Origin: Promethearchaeota archaeon Loki_b32
GTDB lineage: Archaea > Asgardarchaeota > Lokiarchaeia > Sigyniarchaeales > SOKP01
DNA: 31,130 nucleotides
Assembly (NCBI GenBank): GCA_005223125.1
Contig: NJBH01000041.1
Span: forward strand, 1 to 31,130
Direction: 5' to 3'
Below are positions 15,422-29,659 of this stretch, piece after piece. Both the position numbers and the translations under genes were made by a program. The notes under the pieces were generated by a model. The model saw nothing but the letters and a program-made list of their open reading frames with translations. It searched no databases and was not told the DNA's origin. Each line of letters starts with the position of its first letter. Positions within the stretch are counted from its first letter, which is position 1.

Positions 15422-15938
15422 TCAGAAATTTAAATCTCCATCACGATAAGTATGATAATTTCCTAAATATTCTATTATTAAATCTATTAAATTCATGAGA
15501 TTTGAATCTTTAGGATTTTTAACAAGATCTTTTAGTTTTTTGTTATCTAAAGAGTCAATAAATTCTAAAAACTCTGCTGATGACATTTTATCAATAATAG
15601 AGTAAGTACAAATGATTCGTAAAAGATCACTGAATGAGCTAAACTTTATACCATATAACAGACTACAGAATTGCTCGCTGTTAAGATATTCTAAAAATCA
15701 TTCCTTTCTAAGATACTCCCTTACCGTTTCATTACCTTCCTTGAATCTTATTGCGATCTCTTCTTTAAATATTTTTCCTGCTTGTTTCTCTCCAATTTCA
15801 GTTAATCTTTTTAACAAGGGAAACGCAAGACTTTTATGAATCAACCTTGTATTATAATTATTCTCGTACCATACCTGTAAATTACTACAATGCCCCCAAA
15901 ATTCTATTTCAGGGGGTATAATAATTTCACCCTCTTTT
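15422..15938 (-). pseudogene. 5'-truncated, nonsense-disrupted member of the 'FWGHCSNLQ' domain family
   Basis: Manual translation gives KEGEIIIPPEIEFWGHCSNLQVWYENNYNTRLIHKSLAFPLLKRLTEIGEKQAGKIFKEEIAIRFKEGNETVREYLRKE*FLEYL...DGDLNF*. It lacks the N-terminal FKVN..QC half and has an in-frame TGA at 15698-15700. Confidence 0.85.
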
Positions 15939-15963
15939 TATCGGTTGATTTCACCCTCTTTTT
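15924..15963. repeat. 16-bp direct repeat ATTTCACCCTCTTTTT (15924-15939 and 15948-15963) with an 8-nt spacer
   Basis: Read directly. TTTTATCGGTTGATT (15936-15950) also recurs exactly at 16089-16103. Confidence 0.9.
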
Positions 15964-16454
15964 CTATTTACTAATAACTCATCAATGAAGTCTTTAAATG
16001 TGGTTTTAAATTTCTCCCTAATTTCATCTCTATGAGGGTAATAAAATCTTCCTGTGTCGCCTAATAAAATAAAATCATCTCCAACCAGTTTTATCGGTTG
16101 ATTCTTATTACGGACTATTAACTCACTATAAAATTTATATCGAAAATCACTATAATCAATTTCACATATATCATCTCCAAATGCATCATAAACAATACGA
16201 GCTGTCAAAATGTCATAATCCTCTCTCAATTTGTATATATTTGAATCTAAAATATCATCCTCTATGTAATTTTTTAGTTTACGTTCAACATTAAACATAG
16301 GATCTTCATCAAATCGATTAATAAATTCTGCGGAAAGTCCTATTTTCTCTAACATCTTACCTAAATTTTGTTCTTTCTTAAGAGCAACAATAATACTAGC
16401 ACTAGAACTACTTGAATTCGTGATAAATCCATCGATAAGTTTTATTATTTTAAC
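15951..16454 (-). CDS. TNSSS-motif protein 3 (~167 aa); true start upstream of the ORF-track ATG, non-canonical (GTT 16454 or ATT 16460)
   Basis: The frame extends 33 codons upstream of ATG 16355: VKIIKLIDGFITNSSSSSASIIVALKKEQNLGK-MLEKIGLS. An in-frame TAG lies just above, and GAGGT is 8 nt before the GTT. Confidence 0.8.
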   Translation of the reverse strand, partial: VKIIKLIDGFITNSSSSSASIIVALKKEQNLGKMLEKIGLSAEFINRFDEDPMFNVERKLKNYIEDDILDSNIYKLREDYDILTARIVYDAFGDDICEIDYSDFRYKFYSELIVRNKNQPIKLVGDDFILLGDTGRFYYPHRDEIREKFKTTFKDFIDELLVNRKRG

Positions 16455-16471
16455 TTTAATATACCTCTAAT

Positions 16472-19400
16472 TCAATGAAATCGTGCAAATTTTAACTCAT
16501 TATATTCTTTTTTATATTCTAATAATAACTTTCCATACTCTTCTACTGCTTGTATTTCATCCTTAAAAAGCTTATAATAAGGTTTAAACGATTCATGAAA
16601 GAAATGACCGAGTTTTTGTTTTGTGTCATGTGTAACGATATTCTTATGAGTCCTGTACAATTTTAAAATACATTCAACGGCTAAAACCTGAAGTGATCGA
16701 CTATCTCTTAAATATAAAACTGTTAATCCTTTAAAAGCATCAATACCAAAGCTAAGAATAGCGTCCTTGAAAGGCTCTAATTCATCCTCTCTTATCCATA
16801 TACGCTCTTTCTCTTGGAGTTTATTGACTGTTTTCATAAAAGATTCTTGAATATCTTTATCAACCAAATCTACTAGTGCAGGCGATTTTAATTTTGGAAA
16901 AATCTTCGAATAATCTAAATCAGGGGAGAAAGCGATGTATAGCTGAAGTTCTGTATCAAGATCTTCTAAATAATTTAAAAATCCATCATCATTAAGGAAT
17001 CTTATAACTGAATATGAGCTTGTAGATATTAAACGCACCAAATTCTCTTTTAAATAAGATTTAGCATCCTTATCACCACTATCAACAAGTTTTTTTAAGA
17101 CTATTAATGGTAGGGGTGCTGAAATATCTTCCTTTAACGCTTTAATTATCTCTGATTTGATATGCTCATTTTTAAACGAGAAGATCTCTGTGAATTCTTT
17201 TTCCTCAAAGAACTTTAGATATTCTGGTCTAGATAAAAATGCAATGATATTTAATGGACTATTGGTAAAAATTTTTGAAGCTAGCTCATTAAATAATTCT
17301 CTTGCAGTGTTAACAGTCTGTTCTATATTCGAAGCAATTACTTTAATAGGAATTGAAAAAGGAGGATCTTGCTTTTGAAGAGAAAATTCAAAACTTTTCT
17401 TAAAAGTATCGCTTTTGTTTAAAGCTTCAAATATTTCTTCAAAATCTTCTTGAATTAAATCATTTAAACGACTATCCCTAAAAGTATCACCATATCTATG
17501 CTTCCTGAACATCTCATTTAATGACTTATAATCTCCGGTTTCGAATTTACTAATAATCTCCTTTTTCAAGTCTGCTAATTTGTCGCTACATGCTCTTCTT
17601 TCTCTAAATTTGTTAATAACACGTGGGACACCAAGTTTGGTGAGCTCTTTCAGTAAACTCAAGTCTACTTTATTGAAATCAAACTCCTTGAATATTGCGA
17701 TTAATTCTTCTTTACTGAATACCTTTAAATAATTTCTCTCCAGAATTAATTTGATTGTGTTTGAACCTTCACTTAGAAATATATTTTCTAACTCCCTCTT
17801 GTAGATTACTGGAACCAGGTGATTTAGTCGTGTTAATAGATTAAGAAAACTATGGCTTCCATCTTTTTTTAAATTGTCAAAATTTATTTTTTTGACAATC
17901 GATTTCTGCTCCTCTTCAGTGAAAAAATCGTGAAGATAATGTTTATTTACTATAGTGTTTATCTGTTTATAATTTCCTCTATAGAATTGCTTTTCAATTT
18001 CTTCTTTTATATAATTCTTTGCTAAGGATTTATTATATTTAGAAATACCTCGAAGGATTGATAGGCTTGTGTATTCATAATTCAAGATTCTTTGGAAATC
18101 GAATCTTTTTAATAAGTTATCGATTTCCTCTTCCTCAAATACATCAAGATAATTATTAGAAAAGAGATTATTCACATCCCGTACATTTCCGTTTAGAAGT
18201 ATTTTTCTGATCTCTTGTTTAAATATCTCCTTAGCTTTAGAAATCCCCAATGAACTCAGCAATTTTAGATCTATTAATCTCCTCTCCTTTTCACTTGATA
18301 AAAACGAAATATAATCAAAATCCCTAAAAATAATCTCTAATTCTTCAGTAGTAAATATTTTCAGTGAAACTCCATGATGATATGGTTTTAATATATCAGA
18401 GAAAGTTTTCCAGTCTTTAGCTTCAATTAATGAGATAATATGATCTTTGAAAAAAGTCCTTGCTCCTTTAATACCCTTATCAATGAGTTTTTTTAGCCAA
18501 TTATTTCGCTCTTTTTCCTTCCACTTTGATAATTTAGCAAAGTCAAAATCTTCAAATAACGTTTTTAACTCTTCTTCGGTAAAGTTAGATAAATAACGTT
18601 GATTCCATAAATATGTGATAACACTATAATTTCCATTAAGAAGTCTTTTAGCAACTTCCTCTTTAAAGAGATTTTTAGCTTTAATAACACCTTGATCAGC
18701 TAATTTTTTTAAAAGTGGAAAAGCTATGTTACTATGTAATAACCGCGTATCATAATTATTTTCTACCCACGCTTGAATATTGGAACAATGAGCCCAAAAT
18801 TCTTCTTCAGGAGAGATTTCTGTCGAAACATGATCTCTTTCGGTATTACTGTAAATCTCCGAAGCTTCATCAACAGATTCAATTCCATCATAATCTGGGA
18901 TCTCTTTGATTGGAATATTTAACAAAAGTTGCATACATTGGGTGAATCGTCTATCTTTAATGTATAAAATCGTTTTTTCATTTTCTAATCTAAGAGAAAT
19001 ATTATCATTGATTTGATAAATTTTGGATTTTAACAGCTCCACTAACTTTTTTGCCTTTTGTGAACGCATTATCTGTTCTGGCGATGCATAACGGGATGAG
19101 GAATGATATGCACTTTCCTCATATATCTGGAGAATTTCTTGTTTTAATGAATCTGGTAACATATTATTAATCTTGATAATATATTCTTGATCTAAATTTT
19201 GAAAAGCTATATAAAAGAAATCCTCAATTCCATGATTAGCCCATCTATCTGAAGGATTGTACTTCTCTAATAGTCGATTTATAATATTATATTCTTTATT
19301 TTCTATAATTGCTTTAATCTGATCTTGTGTAAAGATATCAAAAAATATATTAATAAATTCATATCCCCAATCTCCATATCTATAATTATTTTCATTGATT

Positions 19401-22300
19401 AAGACATGCTTGATAAAAGGCTCAATTATATCTTCCCCCATTTCTTTAAAAATTCCCTTCATATGATCTAAATAATCCCGGCTCTGAGTCATTTTAAATA
19501 TTATATCACCACCAGCTTTTCCTAATTTACTAAGGAAACCTTCGATGTACCAGGGGGGATATTCCTCTTCAGATGCTTTCTTAAGTTTATCCAAAAGATG
19601 AGAGTTTGGGTTTTTATAAATCTGTACTACATCCTTCTTATCTAGAATTTTAATAACTTCGAAATTAAATAAATCCCTTATTTCTTCATAAGACTTATTT
19701 ATAATGAACTCAATAATTTCCTTTTTTGCCAAATCTTCATTCTCTTCTGCAATTTCTTTAATAGGATAAGCAATGGTATCCATTTCCATATAATCAAATT
19801 TTTCATTTAATAATTGTAATAATACTTTCAAGCCAAATTTTCCTAATTTGCCAAATTTACCTATCAACCAATCAATTGTCTCCCCTTCTTCTACGAAGTC
19901 AATATAATACATAAATTTTCTTACAAACTCCTTTATATCAAAATCAGAAAATAACTCATGAATTTCAGCGCTTGGTAAAAAATCAAGAATATTTTCAGAA
20001 AAGAGATGAAAATATAAAAGGTCATTTTTTTGGGTTGTTAATAATTCCAGAATTTCTTCCTCAATACTTCCTTTTATTTGATTTAACGTTTTGAATAAAT
20101 AACTCCGATATAAAAATTCAGGATCAAAATTTGAACTTTTCCACTGCGTTATAAATAGGTTAAACATAAAGATAACAGAATTCTGCGAGATTTCTTTGTT
20201 TATTTGATCAATTAGAGAAGTAATTTGCACTTTATGATCATTATAGGCAAAATATCCTCCTTGCATAAGATTATAGAGAAATTGTAGCTTCTCTTCTCCT
20301 ATAATAGTATCTAACTTACTATTAACATAATTAAGTCCCCCTTGTCCCAAGTTTTCAAGCATATAAGATGCTTTAGACTTGATATGTGGATCATCGTGAT
20401 CAAGTATATTCAATAGAATTTCAAAAAAATGAGAGCGTGGATCATTAGTAATAACTTGAAGCTTATCTATTTTTAAGCGATAAAATACCCCACTGTCTAT
20501 AATCTTTAGAAGTTTCTCGATATCAGATGTCTTAAAACATTCTTCAAAAGTCTTAATTAAAATAATAGGAGCGGCTTCCGCTATTTGTTTTAAAGCCGTT
20601 TTTGCAGTGGAAATATTCTTATTTAAATCAGCTAATATTTTTTCTAAGATTTCCTGAGAAATTGAACTTATAAGAGTCTCGAATTCACCCTCAAGGAGGA
20701 AGCTAAAGAATTCATTTCCCATTAAATAAATCAATTTTTCGATATCAATTTTTTTTATCCAATCAATAAGCGTCTCTTTTTGTCTATCAGATAAATATTG
20801 AGAAACTATATTAAAACTCCTTATAATAACACTAGCATCTTCTTTTTCAAGTTCTTTTATTATATTAGGAATATAATTGAATTCTTGATCTCTTAGTAGT
20901 TCTTGTTTTTCATCACTTGAAAGAAAATCTAAGAAACCATTTCTAGTAAAAGAACTGAATTTATCTATTGGTAATTTTAAGAACCAATGTTTCAATCTAA
21001 CTATTAAATCTTCGGGTATATAATTTATTATATTCTTGAAAGCTTTTGTTAGATGATAAATATCCCTCTTTTCTAAATGTCTTGTTAATTTATGGAAAAA
21101 ATTATAATCTGGATCTAGAAGGAAACTGTCTACCATATCTTTGTCAAAAACTCCTAAAACTCCCTTTTGAAACAATAGTAAAGAATCCGTAAATTTTATT
21201 GTTTTCATCCAGGTTAAAACATCTGATTTTAGGTTCTCAGAAGCAAACCCAAGAGCTTGAATGAGGATATAAGCATCATGTTCTTTTTCTCTTGAATAAA
21301 TGCTTTTTTTCAAGGCATTTTGAGAATACCAATTTATCAATTTTTCATTTAATATCTTCATTATATTATTTTTTTGATTTTCATTCACAAAATCCAACAG
21401 AGGTTTCTTCGAAAAGATACCCCCATTTAATAGATCTATAAAAGCTTCAAAATCTCTATCAGGTAAATCATGGATAATACGGTCTTTATATTTATCGGGG
21501 AGATACTCAAATAAATTCTGAAGTGCTCTGGTAGCTGTAGTATTTGGATGTCGAAACCGACTAGACTTAAAACCACTAAGAAGGGTTTCTATTAAATTGT
21601 CATCAATAAAGGCTTTTTTATATTTATCTTTAAATCCTTCAAAAAAACCAGCTCTTATTAAAGTAATTTTTATCTCAGGATCTCTATATTGAAACCATTT
21701 TAGCACCCTGTTATAGAATTGTTCCTCAGAAATAGACCTTAAAGGCTTGTAAAATGCATCATTATAAGGTATAGAATGTGGATGATCAATACAATTTAAA
21801 AATATATCCAATAAATTTAACGTAGGTCGTTGATATAATTCTTTAATTTGCGACTCATCAAAATAATTTAAATACCTGCCAAGAACTAAGAATTTAATGA
21901 CAGGACGGTAATTACTTTCTAATCTTTTGATAATTTCTTCTTGAAAAACCTTTTGCGCAATAGGATCTCCCACATCACTTAACTTTCGTAGCAAGGGGAA
22001 AGCGATATTCCGGTGTAACAATCGAGTATCATAATTACTTTCTGTCCACACTTGTAAATTAGAGGAATGTCCCCAAAACTCTGCGTCTTCTGGAATTTTT
22101 TTCTTGGATTTTTCTGATTTTTCTATCTTTTCTTCCAATTCATCAATAGATGTAATTTCTTCAAGAGATTTCATTTCTGAAACAGGAATATCTATAAGTA
22201 AACGGCGACATTGATTAAATCGCTTATTATTTACATAAATATTCGTCTGATTATTTTCAAGCTTTAGACTTAAATACTTATTAACTTTAAATTCTTTCAT
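16472..22300 (-). CDS. 1942-aa protein with two copies of the Loki-type 'FKVN...QC...FWxH[CS]SN...LLH' domain and extensive alpha-helical repeats
   Basis: Domain copy 1 is at the N-terminus. Copy 2 begins at ~19021 (YQINDNISLRLE...FTQC...EFWAHCSNIQAW...LLHSNIAFPLLKKL). About 70-aa helical repeats follow. No TM segment or signal peptide is evident. Confidence 0.85.
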   Translation of the reverse strand: MKEFKVNKYLSLKLENNQTNIYVNNKRFNQCRRLLIDIPVSEMKSLEEITSIDELEEKIEKSEKSKKKIPEDAEFWGHSSNLQVWTESNYDTRLLHRNIAFPLLRKLSDVGDPIAQKVFQEEIIKRLESNYRPVIKFLVLGRYLNYFDESQIKELYQRPTLNLLDIFLNCIDHPHSIPYNDAFYKPLRSISEEQFYNRVLKWFQYRDPEIKITLIRAGFFEGFKDKYKKAFIDDNLIETLLSGFKSSRFRHPNTTATRALQNLFEYLPDKYKDRIIHDLPDRDFEAFIDLLNGGIFSKKPLLDFVNENQKNNIMKILNEKLINWYSQNALKKSIYSREKEHDAYILIQALGFASENLKSDVLTWMKTIKFTDSLLLFQKGVLGVFDKDMVDSFLLDPDYNFFHKLTRHLEKRDIYHLTKAFKNIINYIPEDLIVRLKHWFLKLPIDKFSSFTRNGFLDFLSSDEKQELLRDQEFNYIPNIIKELEKEDASVIIRSFNIVSQYLSDRQKETLIDWIKKIDIEKLIYLMGNEFFSFLLEGEFETLISSISQEILEKILADLNKNISTAKTALKQIAEAAPIILIKTFEECFKTSDIEKLLKIIDSGVFYRLKIDKLQVITNDPRSHFFEILLNILDHDDPHIKSKASYMLENLGQGGLNYVNSKLDTIIGEEKLQFLYNLMQGGYFAYNDHKVQITSLIDQINKEISQNSVIFMFNLFITQWKSSNFDPEFLYRSYLFKTLNQIKGSIEEEILELLTTQKNDLLYFHLFSENILDFLPSAEIHELFSDFDIKEFVRKFMYYIDFVEEGETIDWLIGKFGKLGKFGLKVLLQLLNEKFDYMEMDTIAYPIKEIAEENEDLAKKEIIEFIINKSYEEIRDLFNFEVIKILDKKDVVQIYKNPNSHLLDKLKKASEEEYPPWYIEGFLSKLGKAGGDIIFKMTQSRDYLDHMKGIFKEMGEDIIEPFIKHVLINENNYRYGDWGYEFINIFFDIFTQDQIKAIIENKEYNIINRLLEKYNPSDRWANHGIEDFFYIAFQNLDQEYIIKINNMLPDSLKQEILQIYEESAYHSSSRYASPEQIMRSQKAKKLVELLKSKIYQINDNISLRLENEKTILYIKDRRFTQCMQLLLNIPIKEIPDYDGIESVDEASEIYSNTERDHVSTEISPEEEFWAHCSNIQAWVENNYDTRLLHSNIAFPLLKKLADQGVIKAKNLFKEEVAKRLLNGNYSVITYLWNQRYLSNFTEEELKTLFEDFDFAKLSKWKEKERNNWLKKLIDKGIKGARTFFKDHIISLIEAKDWKTFSDILKPYHHGVSLKIFTTEELEIIFRDFDYISFLSSEKERRLIDLKLLSSLGISKAKEIFKQEIRKILLNGNVRDVNNLFSNNYLDVFEEEEIDNLLKRFDFQRILNYEYTSLSILRGISKYNKSLAKNYIKEEIEKQFYRGNYKQINTIVNKHYLHDFFTEEEQKSIVKKINFDNLKKDGSHSFLNLLTRLNHLVPVIYKRELENIFLSEGSNTIKLILERNYLKVFSKEELIAIFKEFDFNKVDLSLLKELTKLGVPRVINKFRERRACSDKLADLKKEIISKFETGDYKSLNEMFRKHRYGDTFRDSRLNDLIQEDFEEIFEALNKSDTFKKSFEFSLQKQDPPFSIPIKVIASNIEQTVNTARELFNELASKIFTNSPLNIIAFLSRPEYLKFFEEKEFTEIFSFKNEHIKSEIIKALKEDISAPLPLIVLKKLVDSGDKDAKSYLKENLVRLISTSSYSVIRFLNDDGFLNYLEDLDTELQLYIAFSPDLDYSKIFPKLKSPALVDLVDKDIQESFMKTVNKLQEKERIWIREDELEPFKDAILSFGIDAFKGLTVLYLRDSRSLQVLAVECILKLYRTHKNIVTHDTKQKLGHFFHESFKPYYKLFKDEIQAVEEYGKLLLEYKKEYNELKFARFH

Positions 22301-22332
22301 TTAGTCATTTACACCTTAAACTCCATATCCTC

Positions 22333-22713
22333 CTACATTTCATTAAGCACATGCAGTAAAATCAATTCATTTTTTATGACAGTTGTACGCTTATCACCAT
22401 AGGAGTACCTACTAAGCACATCATAAGCTTCGCATTCAAATTCTGCATAGGGCTCATCACCCCAAGAGGCCGTACAATAGTCCATCAAATAAAGATCATA
22501 TTCATCTAAAAGATCATCAAATTCAATTGAATCTTCAAACCAATCTCTAATCTCATCCATATTTTTGCTAAATTCATCTTCCCAATTACTCGATAGACCA
22601 ATTTTTCTGAATAACTCCCCTAAACCTTTGCCCTTTCGAGATGCTAGAAGAATTGTAGCGCTAACTGAACTTGAATTTGTAATAAACCCTTCTAATATTT
22701 TTATTATTCTCGT
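22333..22713 (-). CDS. TNSSS-motif protein 2 (126 aa, acidic); probable ACG start
   Basis: The frame extends 51 codons upstream of ATG 22560: (ACG)RIIKILEGFITNSSSVSATILLASRKGKGLGELFRKIGLSSNWEDEFSKN-MDE. AGGTGA lies 9 nt before the ACG, with an in-frame TGA just above. Confidence 0.82.
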   Translation of the reverse strand, partial: TRIIKILEGFITNSSSVSATILLASRKGKGLGELFRKIGLSSNWEDEFSKNMDEIRDWFEDSIEFDDLLDEYDLYLMDYCTASWGDEPYAEFECEAYDVLSRYSYGDKRTTVIKNELILLHVLNEM

Positions 22714-22717
22714 TTTA

Positions 22718-23137
22718 TCAATTCACCTTTATGTCTTTTAAATACACCAAAATGGATCTGATAAACCTTCCAGTTTTAACTCTATATTTTGGATTTTGAA
22801 CTAAATAATCTAATTTTTCTTCACTAGCACCTAATAGTAAGAGAAGATCAGCTCCAACTAACATTTCAGGAGTAATTGAATTTCTAAATAAATCAATGTG
22901 TTTTTTACTCAATTCATATAACTCTAAATTCTCTTTTGCAAAAAAAATATCATAGTAGTTTTCTAATTCTAAAATACTTGAGTCTATCACGTTTTTGTTG
23001 ATTAATGATTGAATATTTTCAATATCTAGCATAAATTTATCTTGAAAAGAATTTGGAATCTTAAGGAAGCTTAACAAATTCCCTAAATCTGATTCTTTTC
23101 GGAGTGCTAAAATAATCACAGAAACTGTATTCTTCAA
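22718..23137 (-). CDS. Motif-less paralog of the TNSSS proteins (139 aa; TTG start at 23137 preferred, ORF track 23164)
   Basis: VSVIILALRKESDLGNLLSFLKIP aligns with SATIIIALRKGRDLVEAMKKIGVP. It shares L..YYDI and VGADLLLL with the paralogs. AGGTGA precedes the TTG. Confidence 0.75.
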   Translation of the reverse strand: MKNTVSVIILALRKESDLGNLLSFLKIPNSFQDKFMLDIENIQSLINKNVIDSSILELENYYDIFFAKENLELYELSKKHIDLFRNSITPEMLVGADLLLLLGASEEKLDYLVQNPKYRVKTGRFIRSILVYLKDIKVN

Positions 23138-23151
23138 ATTCTCACCTTCAT

Positions 23152-23526
23152 TTAATACATACAACTCTCGTTAAAATATAAGAAAATCAAATCTTTTCCG
23201 CTTTTCTCTTCAAGAGTATAAGCCATCCATCTTAAAGCCTCAAGTTCTTCATAAGGGATTTCATAAAAATCATCACTATCCATTGTCAAGATATCGTTAA
23301 TTAATATATCATATTCATCTGTCAAATGGTCAATCTCAATCTCATAATCTTCAATATACTCCAAATTATCTGTAAAATTATAAAAATTTTCTGGTAAATC
23401 ACTTGGTACTCCTATTTTTTTCATCGCTTCCACAAGATCTCTTCCTTTCCGTAAGGCGATAATAATTGTCGCACTATCACTACTAGAATTCGTAACAAAT
23501 CCGTCCATTATTCTAATAATTCTCAA
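23152..23526 (-). CDS. TNSSS-motif protein 1 (124 aa, acidic)
   Basis: MRIIRIMDGFVTNSSSDSATIIIALRK. The TTG start overlaps the radical SAM stop (TTGA). GAGGAG RBS 8 nt upstream. Confidence 0.88.
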   Translation of the reverse strand: MRIIRIMDGFVTNSSSDSATIIIALRKGRDLVEAMKKIGVPSDLPENFYNFTDNLEYIEDYEIEIDHLTDEYDILINDILTMDSDDFYEIPYEELEALRWMAYTLEEKSGKDLIFLYFNESCMY

Positions 23527-24743
23527 ATCTCAATCTCCTCAACCATATTTAGAGTATTCAATTCTTTACCCTTTTCCTGGCAAAATACAATACCAGGTTC
23601 TATTGGACAACCACCAAAACAACTTAAGAAATGGTCACATGTCTTACAACCTTCATAACGAGGATTTATTAAAATTTTTCTGAACCTCTCGAATGATTCC
23701 CAAGCATTTACTATATCCATACCCTTCAAGTTAATTCCTTGATTGATTTGCATAAATGAGCATGGCTTCATATTTAAATTCCAATCAATATAAGCAGAAT
23801 ATATGCCTCCTGTACATCCTTCAATAGATTGTGGTAAAAAGGGAAAATCTTTTACAATAAAGGAAGAACAAGCATCAATACTCAAGCGCAATCCGTACTT
23901 TTTTCGAAAGCTTAAAATTTTTATAAGCTCTAAAGATAATTTCTTTTTATCATTTGAATCTAATATTTCATGGCTTAGATTTGCGCCCCTTCCCATTGGT
24001 TTGAATAATAACAATACAACGTTTGAAATTCCTAATTTTGCATATTTTTCTGTAATTTCTGAGAGTTTTGGAATTCGTGATTTTAACAATAATAAATGCA
24101 TATTTGTCTGTATCCCATGGCTTAGAAACTTTCTAGTCGTTTCTATGGTCTCTTTGGTTCTTTTTTCAGAATGGCTTACAGCGACTGCTCCACAGTACTT
24201 TTTTGAAGCATTAAGAATTTCCTCAGTTAAGTTTGTGCCATTAGTTGTATAATTAGGAATTATACCACCTTTTATTCGTAATTTTTCTAGAATTTCTGTA
24301 AAGTGTGGATGAAGTGTTGGCTCCCCACCCCCTAATGCGATTTGTAAAACTCTACTTTTTTTCATTTTTGTGAGGAGTAGATTGAAATCTTCCATTGAGA
24401 GATTTCTACCCTCTTCTATAGATTTTGCTGACATATAACAGTAATTACAACTTAAATTACAATAATTATTTAAAGAAAGATCTATTAATACCGGGGATTT
24501 TGTAATAGGAGCAGTAAATTGAGGGTTGTCTTTTATTGTTGGATCTATACGCAGCTCTATTTCTTTAGGATAATTCTGATTAAAGAAAAACTTGGAAAAT
24601 TTCAACTCTTTTTCATTCAACGGCTTTTTCTGTAGGTATTTGAGTAAAGTTATAAATCCCCCTCTATCAACCATCACCATTCTGCCATTAGTTTGGTTGA
24701 AGTATACTCCTCCAAACGACTCATTCCTTAAGATGATTTTCAA
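23523..24743 (-). CDS. Radical SAM / SPASM-domain protein with RRE (PqqD/MftB)-like N-terminus
   Basis: CNLSCNYC (CxxxCxxC), GGGEP, YTTNG, KPMGRG. SPASM cysteines CTGG...MKPCSF...CKTCDHFLSCFGGC...C. N-terminal LRNESFGGVYFNQTNGRMVMV. Confidence 0.93.
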   Translation of the reverse strand: MKIILRNESFGGVYFNQTNGRMVMVDRGGFITLLKYLQKKPLNEKELKFSKFFFNQNYPKEIELRIDPTIKDNPQFTAPITKSPVLIDLSLNNYCNLSCNYCYMSAKSIEEGRNLSMEDFNLLLTKMKKSRVLQIALGGGEPTLHPHFTEILEKLRIKGGIIPNYTTNGTNLTEEILNASKKYCGAVAVSHSEKRTKETIETTRKFLSHGIQTNMHLLLLKSRIPKLSEITEKYAKLGISNVVLLLFKPMGRGANLSHEILDSNDKKKLSLELIKILSFRKKYGLRLSIDACSSFIVKDFPFLPQSIEGCTGGIYSAYIDWNLNMKPCSFMQINQGINLKGMDIVNAWESFERFRKILINPRYEGCKTCDHFLSCFGGCPIEPGIVFCQEKGKELNTLNMVEEIEI

Positions 24744-24878
24744 TTCAATTTTTCACATTATTTTTGTCTTATAATACCTAAGGATAGTTATAAATAAAAA
24801 TTATTTCAATTCCTTGAGTGTTGAATTTTTCTGATTTCAAGCTATAATTGTATTAGCTGTATTTTACTTCAGAAAATT

Positions 24879-25100
24879 TTATACAATAAAAAATGAGTGA
24901 CTTGATTTTATTTTTTTATACCTCCTTTCCCTATAAAGTTCATGTTCCCCTTCCTTTTCATACACATCCTGAAGACCTAACCAAATTTTAACTAAAGTAG
25001 GATTAGTATTAATAGCACTTTGAAGGAGTTTGAACGCGTCATCAACTTTCCCTTGAGCCAATAACTCTTGTAAAGCCTGATCAAAATCACGATGGAACAT
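24879..25100 (-). CDS. Small TPR-like helical protein, possibly the remnant of a longer TPR gene
   Basis: QGKVDDAFKLLQSAINTNPTLVKIWLGLQDVYEKEG fits a TPR consensus. The same frame upstream reads ...HHTL*ELGNRYF... with two TAA stops. Confidence 0.45.
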   Translation of the reverse strand: MFHRDFDQALQELLAQGKVDDAFKLLQSAINTNPTLVKIWLGLQDVYEKEGEHELYRERRYKKIKSSHSFFIV

Positions 25101-25416
25101 CCTGAAAATTACTGAATTTGAGGAGGGTATAAATATAAAAGGAAATTATATTAAAATTTGGGAGAGTTCTTTATTTGTTACTTCTAATGTAAAGTATCTG
25201 TTTCCGAGTTCTTATAATGTATGGTGGTAGTTTATATGATTAATACATAATCAAATTTTTTCTTTTTTTGTATGTTTAATAATCTGAGTTAAGGTTTTAT
25301 TTTTATAAGGATTATTTTTAGTTTTTAACTAGAAAATTTTATTTCTTTTAAGGAATTATATTAATTCAATAATTTCATTTGATTGATTAAATATATAACA
25401 GTCTTTTGGTATCAAT

Positions 25417-28291: not shown

Positions 28292-29659
28292 ATGCGAGAG
28301 TTTAAGGTCAATGAGTACATTACATTAAAATTTGAGAACAGAAAAACGAATATTTATGTAGCCGCTAAACTGTTTCGGCAGTGTAAATATTTATTAATCG
28401 AAATTCCTATAAATGAAATGACATCTCTCGATGAAATTGAATCCATAGATGATGCGGCTAAAAGATTAGGACATTCTTTAGAAAATGAAATTAATCCTGA
28501 ATTAAGTATTCCTCCAGAAGTAGAATTCTGGGGGCATTGTAGCAATTTACAAGCTTGGTATGAAAATAAATATAATCCACGACTTCTTCATTCAAATTTA
28601 GCGTTTCCGCTATTACAGAAACTTAATGATGTAGGCGATTTGCTTGCGAGGCAAGTCCTCAAGGAAGAACTTGCAAGACGTCTAATAGCTGGGGCTTATT
28701 CAGTAATGGACTTATTAATTAATAAGTTTTATATTGATTTTTTCAATAGAGATGAGCTGTGGTTTATTTTAAACGAGTTTAAATTAGATAAGTTTGAAAA
28801 AAAATTATACTATGTAAGTGCTGAATTTTTTATACTGAAGAAGCTAGTGGATATGGGAGATGGAAAAGCTATCCAAAGATTAAAAATAAAAATAATAAAT
28901 TATCTCTCTAATGGTTATAATTCCATTATAGCTCATTGTTATGAAAGAGGGTATATAGATTATTTAACAAGAGAGGAATTTTGGGGCGTATTTGGTGCTG
29001 ACGGTGTTGTACTTCATGAATTGGAACAAAAGATAAAAAAATATAGAATAATTAGTGGTCAAAAACGATATGTAGAGCAATTTCAAAATTTTGAGTATTT
29101 TAAGCTTCAAGATGGTATTAATATAAATAGTGGTCCTATGATCTTTACATTTGAAGAGGGAGAGATCACAGAAATTGGAATATTTGGAGATGAGAGGTCA
29201 GTAGCAGAAGCAAATCATGATTATTATTATAAAGACAAAGGTCACTTAGAGCTGGAGGAACTTGGCGAGTCTATAGGAAAGTTAGGTTCACTTAAGAAAC
29301 TGATTTTGCGGGATCTTGGATTAAAAAAACTTCCAACATCTTTTGAAAATTTAGATCAATTAAGAATTCTGTCATTAGCAGAAAATTCAGAAATTAAATT
29401 ATCAAATTCTCTATGGAAACTTGAATCACTTAAGGAATTGGATTTAAGTATGAACAATTTAAGGAGGATTCCAAAATCAGTCGAAAATCTAAAAAATCTT
29501 CAGGAATTGTATTTATATGGAAACAACTTGAAGTCAGTTCCACTAAAATCTATTGAAAAATTAAAGAAATTACAAGAAATATGTGTTGATCTCGAATTTG
29601 CTAAGAGAATGGATGATAAGACATATGAATATTTAAAAAATATATTATCTGTTACTTGA
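28292..29659 (+). CDS. Leucine-rich-repeat protein with N-terminal Loki-type 'FKVN...FWGHCSNLQ' domain
   Basis: The N-terminal ~130 aa closely resemble the N-terminus of the 1942-aa protein. One extra helical repeat follows, then ~5 C-terminal 23-aa LRRs (LKELDLSMNNLRRIPKSVENL). Confidence 0.9.
   Translation: MREFKVNEYITLKFENRKTNIYVAAKLFRQCKYLLIEIPINEMTSLDEIESIDDAAKRLGHSLENEINPELSIPPEVEFWGHCSNLQAWYENKYNPRLLHSNLAFPLLQKLNDVGDLLARQVLKEELARRLIAGAYSVMDLLINKFYIDFFNRDELWFILNEFKLDKFEKKLYYVSAEFFILKKLVDMGDGKAIQRLKIKIINYLSNGYNSIIAHCYERGYIDYLTREEFWGVFGADGVVLHELEQKIKKYRIISGQKRYVEQFQNFEYFKLQDGININSGPMIFTFEEGEITEIGIFGDERSVAEANHDYYYKDKGHLELEELGESIGKLGSLKKLILRDLGLKKLPTSFENLDQLRILSLAENSEIKLSNSLWKLESLKELDLSMNNLRRIPKSVENLKNLQELYLYGNNLKSVPLKSIEKLKKLQEICVDLEFAKRMDDKTYEYLKNILSVT

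Follow-up and report, generated by a model that had tools for sequence, protein, structure and literature searches.

A radical SAM/SPASM enzyme genetically paired with N-terminally tagged proteins in an inserted Lokiarchaeal operon, phages and bacteria

The 31,130-nucleotide contig NJBH01000041.1 of the Promethearchaeota archaeon Loki_b32 (hereafter the window, meaning this whole stretch) carries on its minus strand an operon that encodes a radical SAM/SPASM enzyme together with three proteins beginning with the same short conserved sequence, hereafter called the tag. The enzyme and the tagged proteins are genetically paired, the catalytic and auxiliary-cluster motifs of the enzyme are intact, the operon lies within an inserted block, and the genomic contexts of the pair are established. 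The module is not confined to Asgard archaea, and is widespread in phages and bacteria. We consider it highly probable that the enzyme and the tagged proteins constitute a dedicated pair. The chances are about even for the overall explanation that we propose, in which the tagged proteins are clients, the enzyme covalently alters the tag or its immediate neighbourhood, and the system has a role in conflict. The operon and the block that contains it comprise the following features.

23523..24743, minus strand: radical SAM/SPASM enzyme, 406 aa; N-terminus (residues 1-80) like a recognition element (RRE) of peptides that are ribosomally synthesised and then modified after translation (RiPPs); C95/C99/C102; eight auxiliary Cys
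23152..23526, minus strand: tagged protein 1, 124 aa; the tag is residues 1-18, followed by a small alpha/beta domain
22718..23164, minus strand: tag-less paralogue; first TTG at 23164, likelier TTG start at 23137 with AGGTGA ahead of it
22333..22713, minus strand: tagged protein 2, 126 aa; ACG in the place of the Met1 codon
16472..22300, minus strand: 1942-aa giant protein; two copies of a domain expanded in Lokiarchaea (the Loki domain; about residues 1-155 and 1090-1250) and helical repeats (about 1270-1780)
15951..16454, minus strand: tagged protein 3, 167 aa; GTT in the place of the Met1 codon
15422..15937, minus strand: what is left of a Loki-domain gene, which has lost its 5' part and has an in-frame TGA at 15700-15698
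15432..25403, no strand assigned: insert, roughly 10 kb long, that separates the genes for a HAD hydrolase and pyruvate-phosphate dikinase; ends approximate

All seven frames of the operon are present, with a spacing of -4 to 32 bp. A preliminary description of this DNA had claimed seven tightly packed, co-oriented frames and a long motif in three of the proteins, and our frame and identity checks bear this out: tagged proteins 1-3 are 31-41% identical to one another, and all of them fit the long motif. The tag-less paralogue is 22-29% identical to the three and has orthologues in two related operons, while the nearest homologues of tagged protein 3 in other operons are fusions with leucine-rich repeats (LRRs). 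The 4.13-Mb genome contains no tagged N-termini beyond the three in the window, and among its 53 CxxxCxxC-type frames, only the window enzyme has tagged neighbours.

The preliminary description had expected tagged genes to be enriched near this enzyme clade, and the linkage indeed holds in both directions. With the enzyme as the starting point, 48 of 80 viral loci have co-oriented tagged genes, as do 66 of 80 from metagenomes. Starting from the tag, 32 of the 36 tag-chosen phage contigs longer than 100 kb encode the enzyme (E below 1e-30), as do about 26 of 30 after near-identical phages are merged and all 14 of the near-complete ones; the four enzyme-less contigs are 26-40% complete. Among 21 control contigs, chosen by a ribonucleotide-reductase motif and shorter on the whole (seven exceed 100 kb), the enzyme occurs in one and the tag in none. 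Up to six unrelated tagged proteins accompany one enzyme, which is often far from the tag on the same contig and lies locally near a phage-form tag in just 8 of 80 stretches. The cultured coliphages RB43 and RB16 both encode the enzyme. In RB43 it is located at 92-93 kb, and the two tagged genes are 20-24 kb away (68.5-72.4 kb, loci L160-L161), where they flank a vWA-like gene. Among cultured phages, one of these two tagged proteins is found in 175 records and a close enzyme match in 172; tallies by organism name agree, and the records represent a single lineage.

The tag reads M-[KR]-I-[IL]-K-I-x-D-G-F-[VI]-T-N-S-S-S in Asgards and M-K-I-[KR]-x-[DG]-F-V-[TS]-N-S-S-S-S-S-F in phages and bacteria, with the core F-[VI]-[TS]-N-S-S across the forms. 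F and NSS stand at a constant spacing, and inside each form the distance to Met1 does not vary either. The aromatic residue is always F or Y, and the Asn is present in 290 of 290 tags, an invariance that is partly preset because most of the search patterns demanded it. In the predicted model of a tagged protein, residues 1-14 have low confidence and lie outside, ahead of the small alpha/beta domain. The sequences that follow the tag fall into 18 or more clusters with no detectable homology between them, and the tag alone is detectably shared. Comparison of the Asgard client bodies with those of phages and bacteria by hhalign likewise revealed no homology, in a test of low power owing to the shallow alignments. 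As the preliminary description proposed, the clients are folded proteins rather than short RiPP peptides: they are 120-170-aa domains or fusions, and span 120-650 aa across the client set. They contain no sulfatase domain and no S/C-x-P-x-R motif. Neither the tagged proteins nor the giant protein belong to a family in Pfam, NCBIfam, PHROG or PADLOC. A fold search with the tag domain returned ACT/ferredoxin-like matches only (best Z 5.3, root-mean-square deviation 3.8 over 80 aligned residues), with nothing in the viral structure library and no PDB sequence match.

Next, we consider the enzyme. It matches PF04055 (Radical_SAM) with 62.8 bits against a cut-off of 29.5 and has the CxxxCxxC and GGE motifs, while its Pfam SPASM score on its own falls under the cut-off. 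Its auxiliary cysteines are residues 292, 310, 328, 366, 369, 375, 379 and 388; the C366-C369-C375-C379 set (Cx2Cx5Cx3C) and C292, C310, C328 and C388 are kept by 98% or more of the 113 cellular members, for which two fully ligated auxiliary clusters are predicted from the sequences. The second cluster is mostly lost in the viral and phage members. Invariant in 200 members are the three SAM cysteines, D290, C292, C310, C328, S329, K248, S190 and W348, and Q134, N214 and H216 are nearly so. The enzyme passes no named-family cut-off in the family libraries. In agreement with the preliminary description, it falls outside the NirJ/Ahb group, as its scores lie far under the cut-offs for NirJ2 (76.9 against 500 bits) and AhbD (54.7 against 500); the same is true for WgkB (58 against 650), and the Viperin model covers only the N-terminal core, with 52.9 against the 180 bits of membership. 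No heme genes were seen at the loci examined. The closest solved structures are peptide maturases, with SuiB the best (PDB 5V1Q, E 2e-19), followed by SkfB and PqqE; anSME matches at E 2e-9. D290 aligns with the Glu at SuiB chain position 339, which precedes the first auxiliary Cys. This Glu would be E319, the active-site base of SuiB (PMC8124187), if the chain carries a 20-residue tag of its own. In the alignment, residues 1-80 show three strands and then helices, an RRE-like pattern; this segment has no Pfam and no PDB match, and scores 0.88 in Atlas to a cluster with PqqD in 11% of its members.

The block has been inserted between two housekeeping genes that are neighbours in nine congeners: there, the pyruvate-phosphate dikinase gene directly follows the HAD hydrolase gene with a gap of about 170 bp, which is the empty site. 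At the ends of the insert, no target-site repeat or duplication was found and no integrase was seen. Among 151 genomes of the class, the enzyme is encoded in seven, of which one has it in fragmentary form and another has it on a phage-like contig, and tag-bearing genes occur in exactly five, namely those with an intact non-viral enzyme. The 144 enzyme-free genomes yielded only two weak tag-less matches. Across the 17 Asgard loci, the tag lies within about 5 kb of the enzyme at 15, and elsewhere in the genome for the remaining two. In a quick tree, the enzyme homologues with Loki, Hel, Hermod, Hod and Odin names group together, apart from the bacterial and phage rows. A recent transfer of the enzyme from phages to Asgards is unsupported, as the 20 Asgard sequences form one group outside those rows (SH-like approximate likelihood-ratio test 93, without a one-clade test). 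The odds are about even that we are dealing with a horizontally mobile Asgard form of a module with two parts, the enzyme and tag-started clients.

Three further Asgard observations are recorded here. Two genomes in which no enzyme was detected contain stand-alone tag-less homologues of the client domain (L120, L121). A phage-like contig in a Promethearchaeota bin (L013/L030, G081:C134) has six tagged genes around a phage-type enzyme together with sheath-like genes; it may have been binned wrongly, or may belong to a virus of this host. An Odinarchaeota-labelled contig has a divergent tag, G-F-I-A-N-S-S-G (L140 5834-6325), near the most distant Asgard enzyme, with HEAT-like and BRCT genes alongside.

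The genomic contexts differ between bacteria and Asgards. In bacteria, a STAND NTPase gene comes first, followed by the genes for the tag-less small protein, the tagged protein and the enzyme; the STAND gene is present at 39 of the 48 loci that have enough upstream sequence. These STAND proteins are Avs2-like, with Walker A and B intact, swappable effectors, and N-termini of SMEK, trypsin-like or membrane type. Some bacterial copies adjoin cyclic-oligonucleotide-based antiphage signalling (CBASS) genes, restriction genes or recombinases. Between the tag-less and the tagged small protein of bacteria there is weak paralogy (hhalign E 6e-4, probability 30), which echoes the tagged and tag-less pair of the window. 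In two bacterial cassettes, a metallo-beta-lactamase-fold gene lies ahead of a trypsin-STAND gene (L441 3144-7224) and an alpha/beta-hydrolase gene ahead of another STAND gene (L143 2510-7132). The bacterial partner STAND is absent from the window block and, with a single query, was not found in five module-carrying Asgard genomes. At 13 of the 17 Asgard loci, an LRR or Loki-domain gene is near the tagged domain or fused to it, as compared to 4.7% of random windows of the window genome. Because of the patchy distribution, the empty site, the bacterial STAND partner and the Asgard LRR/Loki-domain neighbours, we lean slightly towards a role of the window operon in virus-host conflict; the conflict or defence role suggested in the preliminary description thus has good circumstantial support from the contexts.

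How might the enzyme act on its clients? First, the beta-prone first residues of the client would dock on the RRE-like N-terminus of the enzyme. The F-V-T-N-S-S stretch would then enter the barrel, where the enzyme would make an oxidative covalent change. Finally, the marked small domains, each paired with a tag-less paralogue, would serve as subunits or switches of a large sensor-type protein in virus-host conflict. In bacteria this sensor would be a STAND NTPase, and in Asgards a solenoid of the LRR or Loki-domain type. We somewhat favour a covalent change that lies inside the tag or immediately after it. As a first guess, the change may be an aromatic-to-C-beta cross-link, from Phe to Asn at i+3 or from Phe to Thr/Ser at i+2, with Asp290 as the base. 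An oxidative cross-link is the best guess because SuiB is the nearest structure, the base position is occupied by the invariant Asp, and the tag spacings have precedent: aromatic-to-Asn(i+3) and Phe-to-Ser(i+2) links have been described (PMC11002830). Nevertheless, this particular chemistry is doubtful.

The co-folding of enzyme and motif called for in the preliminary description scored 0.59 with the tag partner, as compared to 0.00 for the best control. Three runs share at least 50% of the contacts, and the partner has a predicted local distance difference test value (pLDDT) of at least 59. The mark used is passed by 58 of 80 solved pairs and 2 of 110 mismatched pairs, both of which scored at most 0.60. 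The modelling lends weak support to enzyme-client binding, and the pass fits binding as well as turnover.

Several points weigh against the overall explanation. About 40% of the viral enzyme loci have no nearby tag, four such fragments are tag-free along the contig, and in one of the control contigs the enzyme is present but no tag was matched. Many loci are kin, and therefore the counts overstate their independence. The RRE assignment is tentative, coming from a pattern in the alignment, and its helices are missing from the phage and bacterial enzymes. In RiPPs, the conserved N-terminal piece is usually a handle and not the modified site. The adjacency of LRR genes may reflect shared variable regions, and the window operon has no NTPase or recognisable effector.

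Following the usual RiPP logic, the tag could be a leader or handle only, with the enzyme modifying the client elsewhere or the tag being cut off later. We regard this as rather unlikely. SuiB, the nearest structure, is reported to recognise the Ser-rich sequence LESS immediately before its core, and the families of clients possess conserved C-termini of their own (SHH, RDG and NYW are examples). In contrast, the F-to-NSS spacing remains fixed while the upstream strand varies by three residues between Asgards and phages. Moreover, the client bodies have no detectable homology across families, which makes it difficult to picture a shared site beyond the tag.

The tagged proteins could instead be non-covalent subunits, activators or inhibitors. 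The substrate of the enzyme would then be a small molecule or some third protein, which may also be the case for Avap1 in the KpAvs2 operon. In that operon, KpAvs2 is bound by Avap2, and the source leaves open what the radical SAM protein Avap1 does (PMC11564622); the co-folding pass equally suits plain binding. However, the closest solved relatives of the enzyme are peptide maturases, and with as many as six unrelated tagged proteins for a single enzyme, a list of clients is a better match than a subunit; this reading is unlikely.

An anSME-like oxidation of Ser/Thr to an aldehyde or ketone, or an epimerisation, would create a catalytic or reactive centre in the small domain. The two auxiliary clusters predicted in cellular members, the Ser-rich tag and the anSME match in the PDB all suit this chemistry. 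On the other hand, the phage members are without the second cluster, the clients lack the S/C-x-P-x-R motif, and S329 (200 of 200 members) stands where anSME has its catalytic Asp, next to the AuxI Cys. Since the residue after the AuxI Cys is this invariant Ser, the formylglycine formation suggested in the preliminary description looks less likely, and we consider the anSME-like reading as a whole improbable.

The giant protein has only two full-length relatives, orthologues with 56-57% identity that both lie in the same operon type. It contains the Loki domain twice, the second copy being followed by at least seven degenerate helical repeats derived from the end of that domain. Two roles were rejected: it is not a hidden STAND, as it has no Walker A and no profile match, and it is not a core component, in view of just two full-length relatives and about 20 copies of the Loki domain elsewhere in the genome. 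The giant is a real gene under selection and an optional, putative partner; its place as a core partner in the preliminary description was overstated, as it occurs at 3 of 17 Asgard loci. The Loki domain itself (about 155 aa, a four-strand sheet and then helices, with a W-[GA]-H-x-S-N-L motif) is present in 21 frames of the window genome, including window 28292-29659, and is fused in Promethearchaeota to LRRs, Ras/Roc GTPases and its own helical repeats. It has no Pfam family, and its PDB fold matches are generic helical ones (best Z 6.4 over 51 residues). The fold searches with the tag domain and the Loki domain do not amount to new folds.

The last gene of the operon, described earlier as a pseudogene of the tagged family, is indeed a truncated and interrupted remnant, but it belongs to the Loki domain: it is a 5'-truncated, TGA-interrupted copy of the domain doubled in the giant protein, with 51% identity. 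Short direct repeats at the junction of tagged protein 3 and the remnant (15917-15963 and 16070-16103) are possibly the scar of the deletion that truncated this gene. Upstream of the enzyme, the insert has a frame of about 73 aa (24879-25100, minus strand) with weak TPR-like matches (E 0.01-0.09). The block is without protease or transporter/exporter genes.

The Met1 codon of 34 Asgard tagged genes is ATG in 20, TTG in eight and near-cognate in six. Tagged proteins 2 and 3 are without ATG, GTG or TTG at Met1, and the codon used lies 7-9 nt after the Shine-Dalgarno site. All six near-cognate codons stand behind such a site: ACG (window 22713), GTT (window 16454), ATA three times and ATT, the latter four at other Asgard loci (L008, L016, L117, L144). 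Such starts may serve to adjust expression, or may be a sign that start selection is loose in Lokiarchaea. The ratio of non-synonymous to synonymous substitution (dN/dS) is about 0.07 for the enzyme, 0.12-0.22 for tagged protein 1 and 0.19-0.25 for the giant. It is very improbable that the block is a decaying passenger island whose genes no longer cooperate in this genome, as the near-cognate starts, the terminal pseudogene and the direct repeats might suggest, because the enzyme, tagged protein 1 and the giant are intact with low dN/dS and the near-cognate starts recur at four other loci.

In its broadest form, our explanation holds that a single enzyme reads a portable 16-19-residue N-terminal tag and puts a new covalent mark on otherwise unrelated folded proteins, a system common to phages, bacteria and Asgards, whose Asgard form is an NTPase-free LRR/solenoid immune-type sensor; this remains tentative. 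If the enzyme modifies the tag, this would be a new protein modification common to phages, bacteria and the archaeal relatives of eukaryotes. The tag would be portable and graftable onto other proteins, and the finding would bear on the role of radical SAM partners in Avs/NLR-type defence operons. The joining of the Asgard module to LRR/solenoid proteins is relevant to the assembly of immune-type receptors before eukaryotes.

How does the module compare with known systems? As in SuiB/StrB/WgkB (PDB 5V1Q), the auxiliary Cys residues align, a carboxylate occupies the E319 base position, and the N-terminus is RRE-like in the Asgard form; in contrast, the clients here are folded proteins of 120-650 aa with the conserved piece at the very N-terminus, and the operon has no protease or transporter. 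With anSME/AtsB, the enzyme shares eight auxiliary Cys and the action of a radical SAM/SPASM protein on a short motif of a whole protein, but differs in its extra N-terminal domain, the Ser for Asp after the AuxI Cys, and the absence of a sulfatase client or S/C-x-P-x-R. The aromatic-x-Ser and aromatic-x-x-Asn spacings of the triceptide (3-CyFE) and dynobactin enzymes (PMC11002830) are found in the tag, whereas their substrates are short precursors with C-terminal cores and their family models are not among the top matches. In QatB-QatC and type IV CBASS Cap9 (PMC13279940), a defence enzyme engages the conserved unstructured N-terminus of its partner, and QatB-QatC is an example of a defence operon that can rely on a modified N-terminus of this kind; this is an analogy only, as the QueC chemistry acts on an N-terminal Gly, and enzyme and motif are unrelated. 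The peptides described in Kaur 2020 (PMC7159879) are C-terminal, different from the N-terminal tag. A full-text literature search, with most subscription papers outside its reach, returned no description of the enzyme-tag pair.

The nearest described system is KpAvs2-Avap1-Avap2 (PMC11564622), which likewise combines an Avs2-type STAND, a radical SAM protein and a small accessory protein, a design shared by the bacterial module. No small protein that we scanned matched DUF6375 (PF19902, Avap2) in Pfam by hmmscan; the source paper defined Avap2 by HHsearch. Unlike that system, the module has two small paralogues, one of them tagged, and the Asgard operon is without STAND. To this picture, the window contributes the Asgard operon design, the empty site, the genome-level linkage in phages and the equivalence to the SuiB base.

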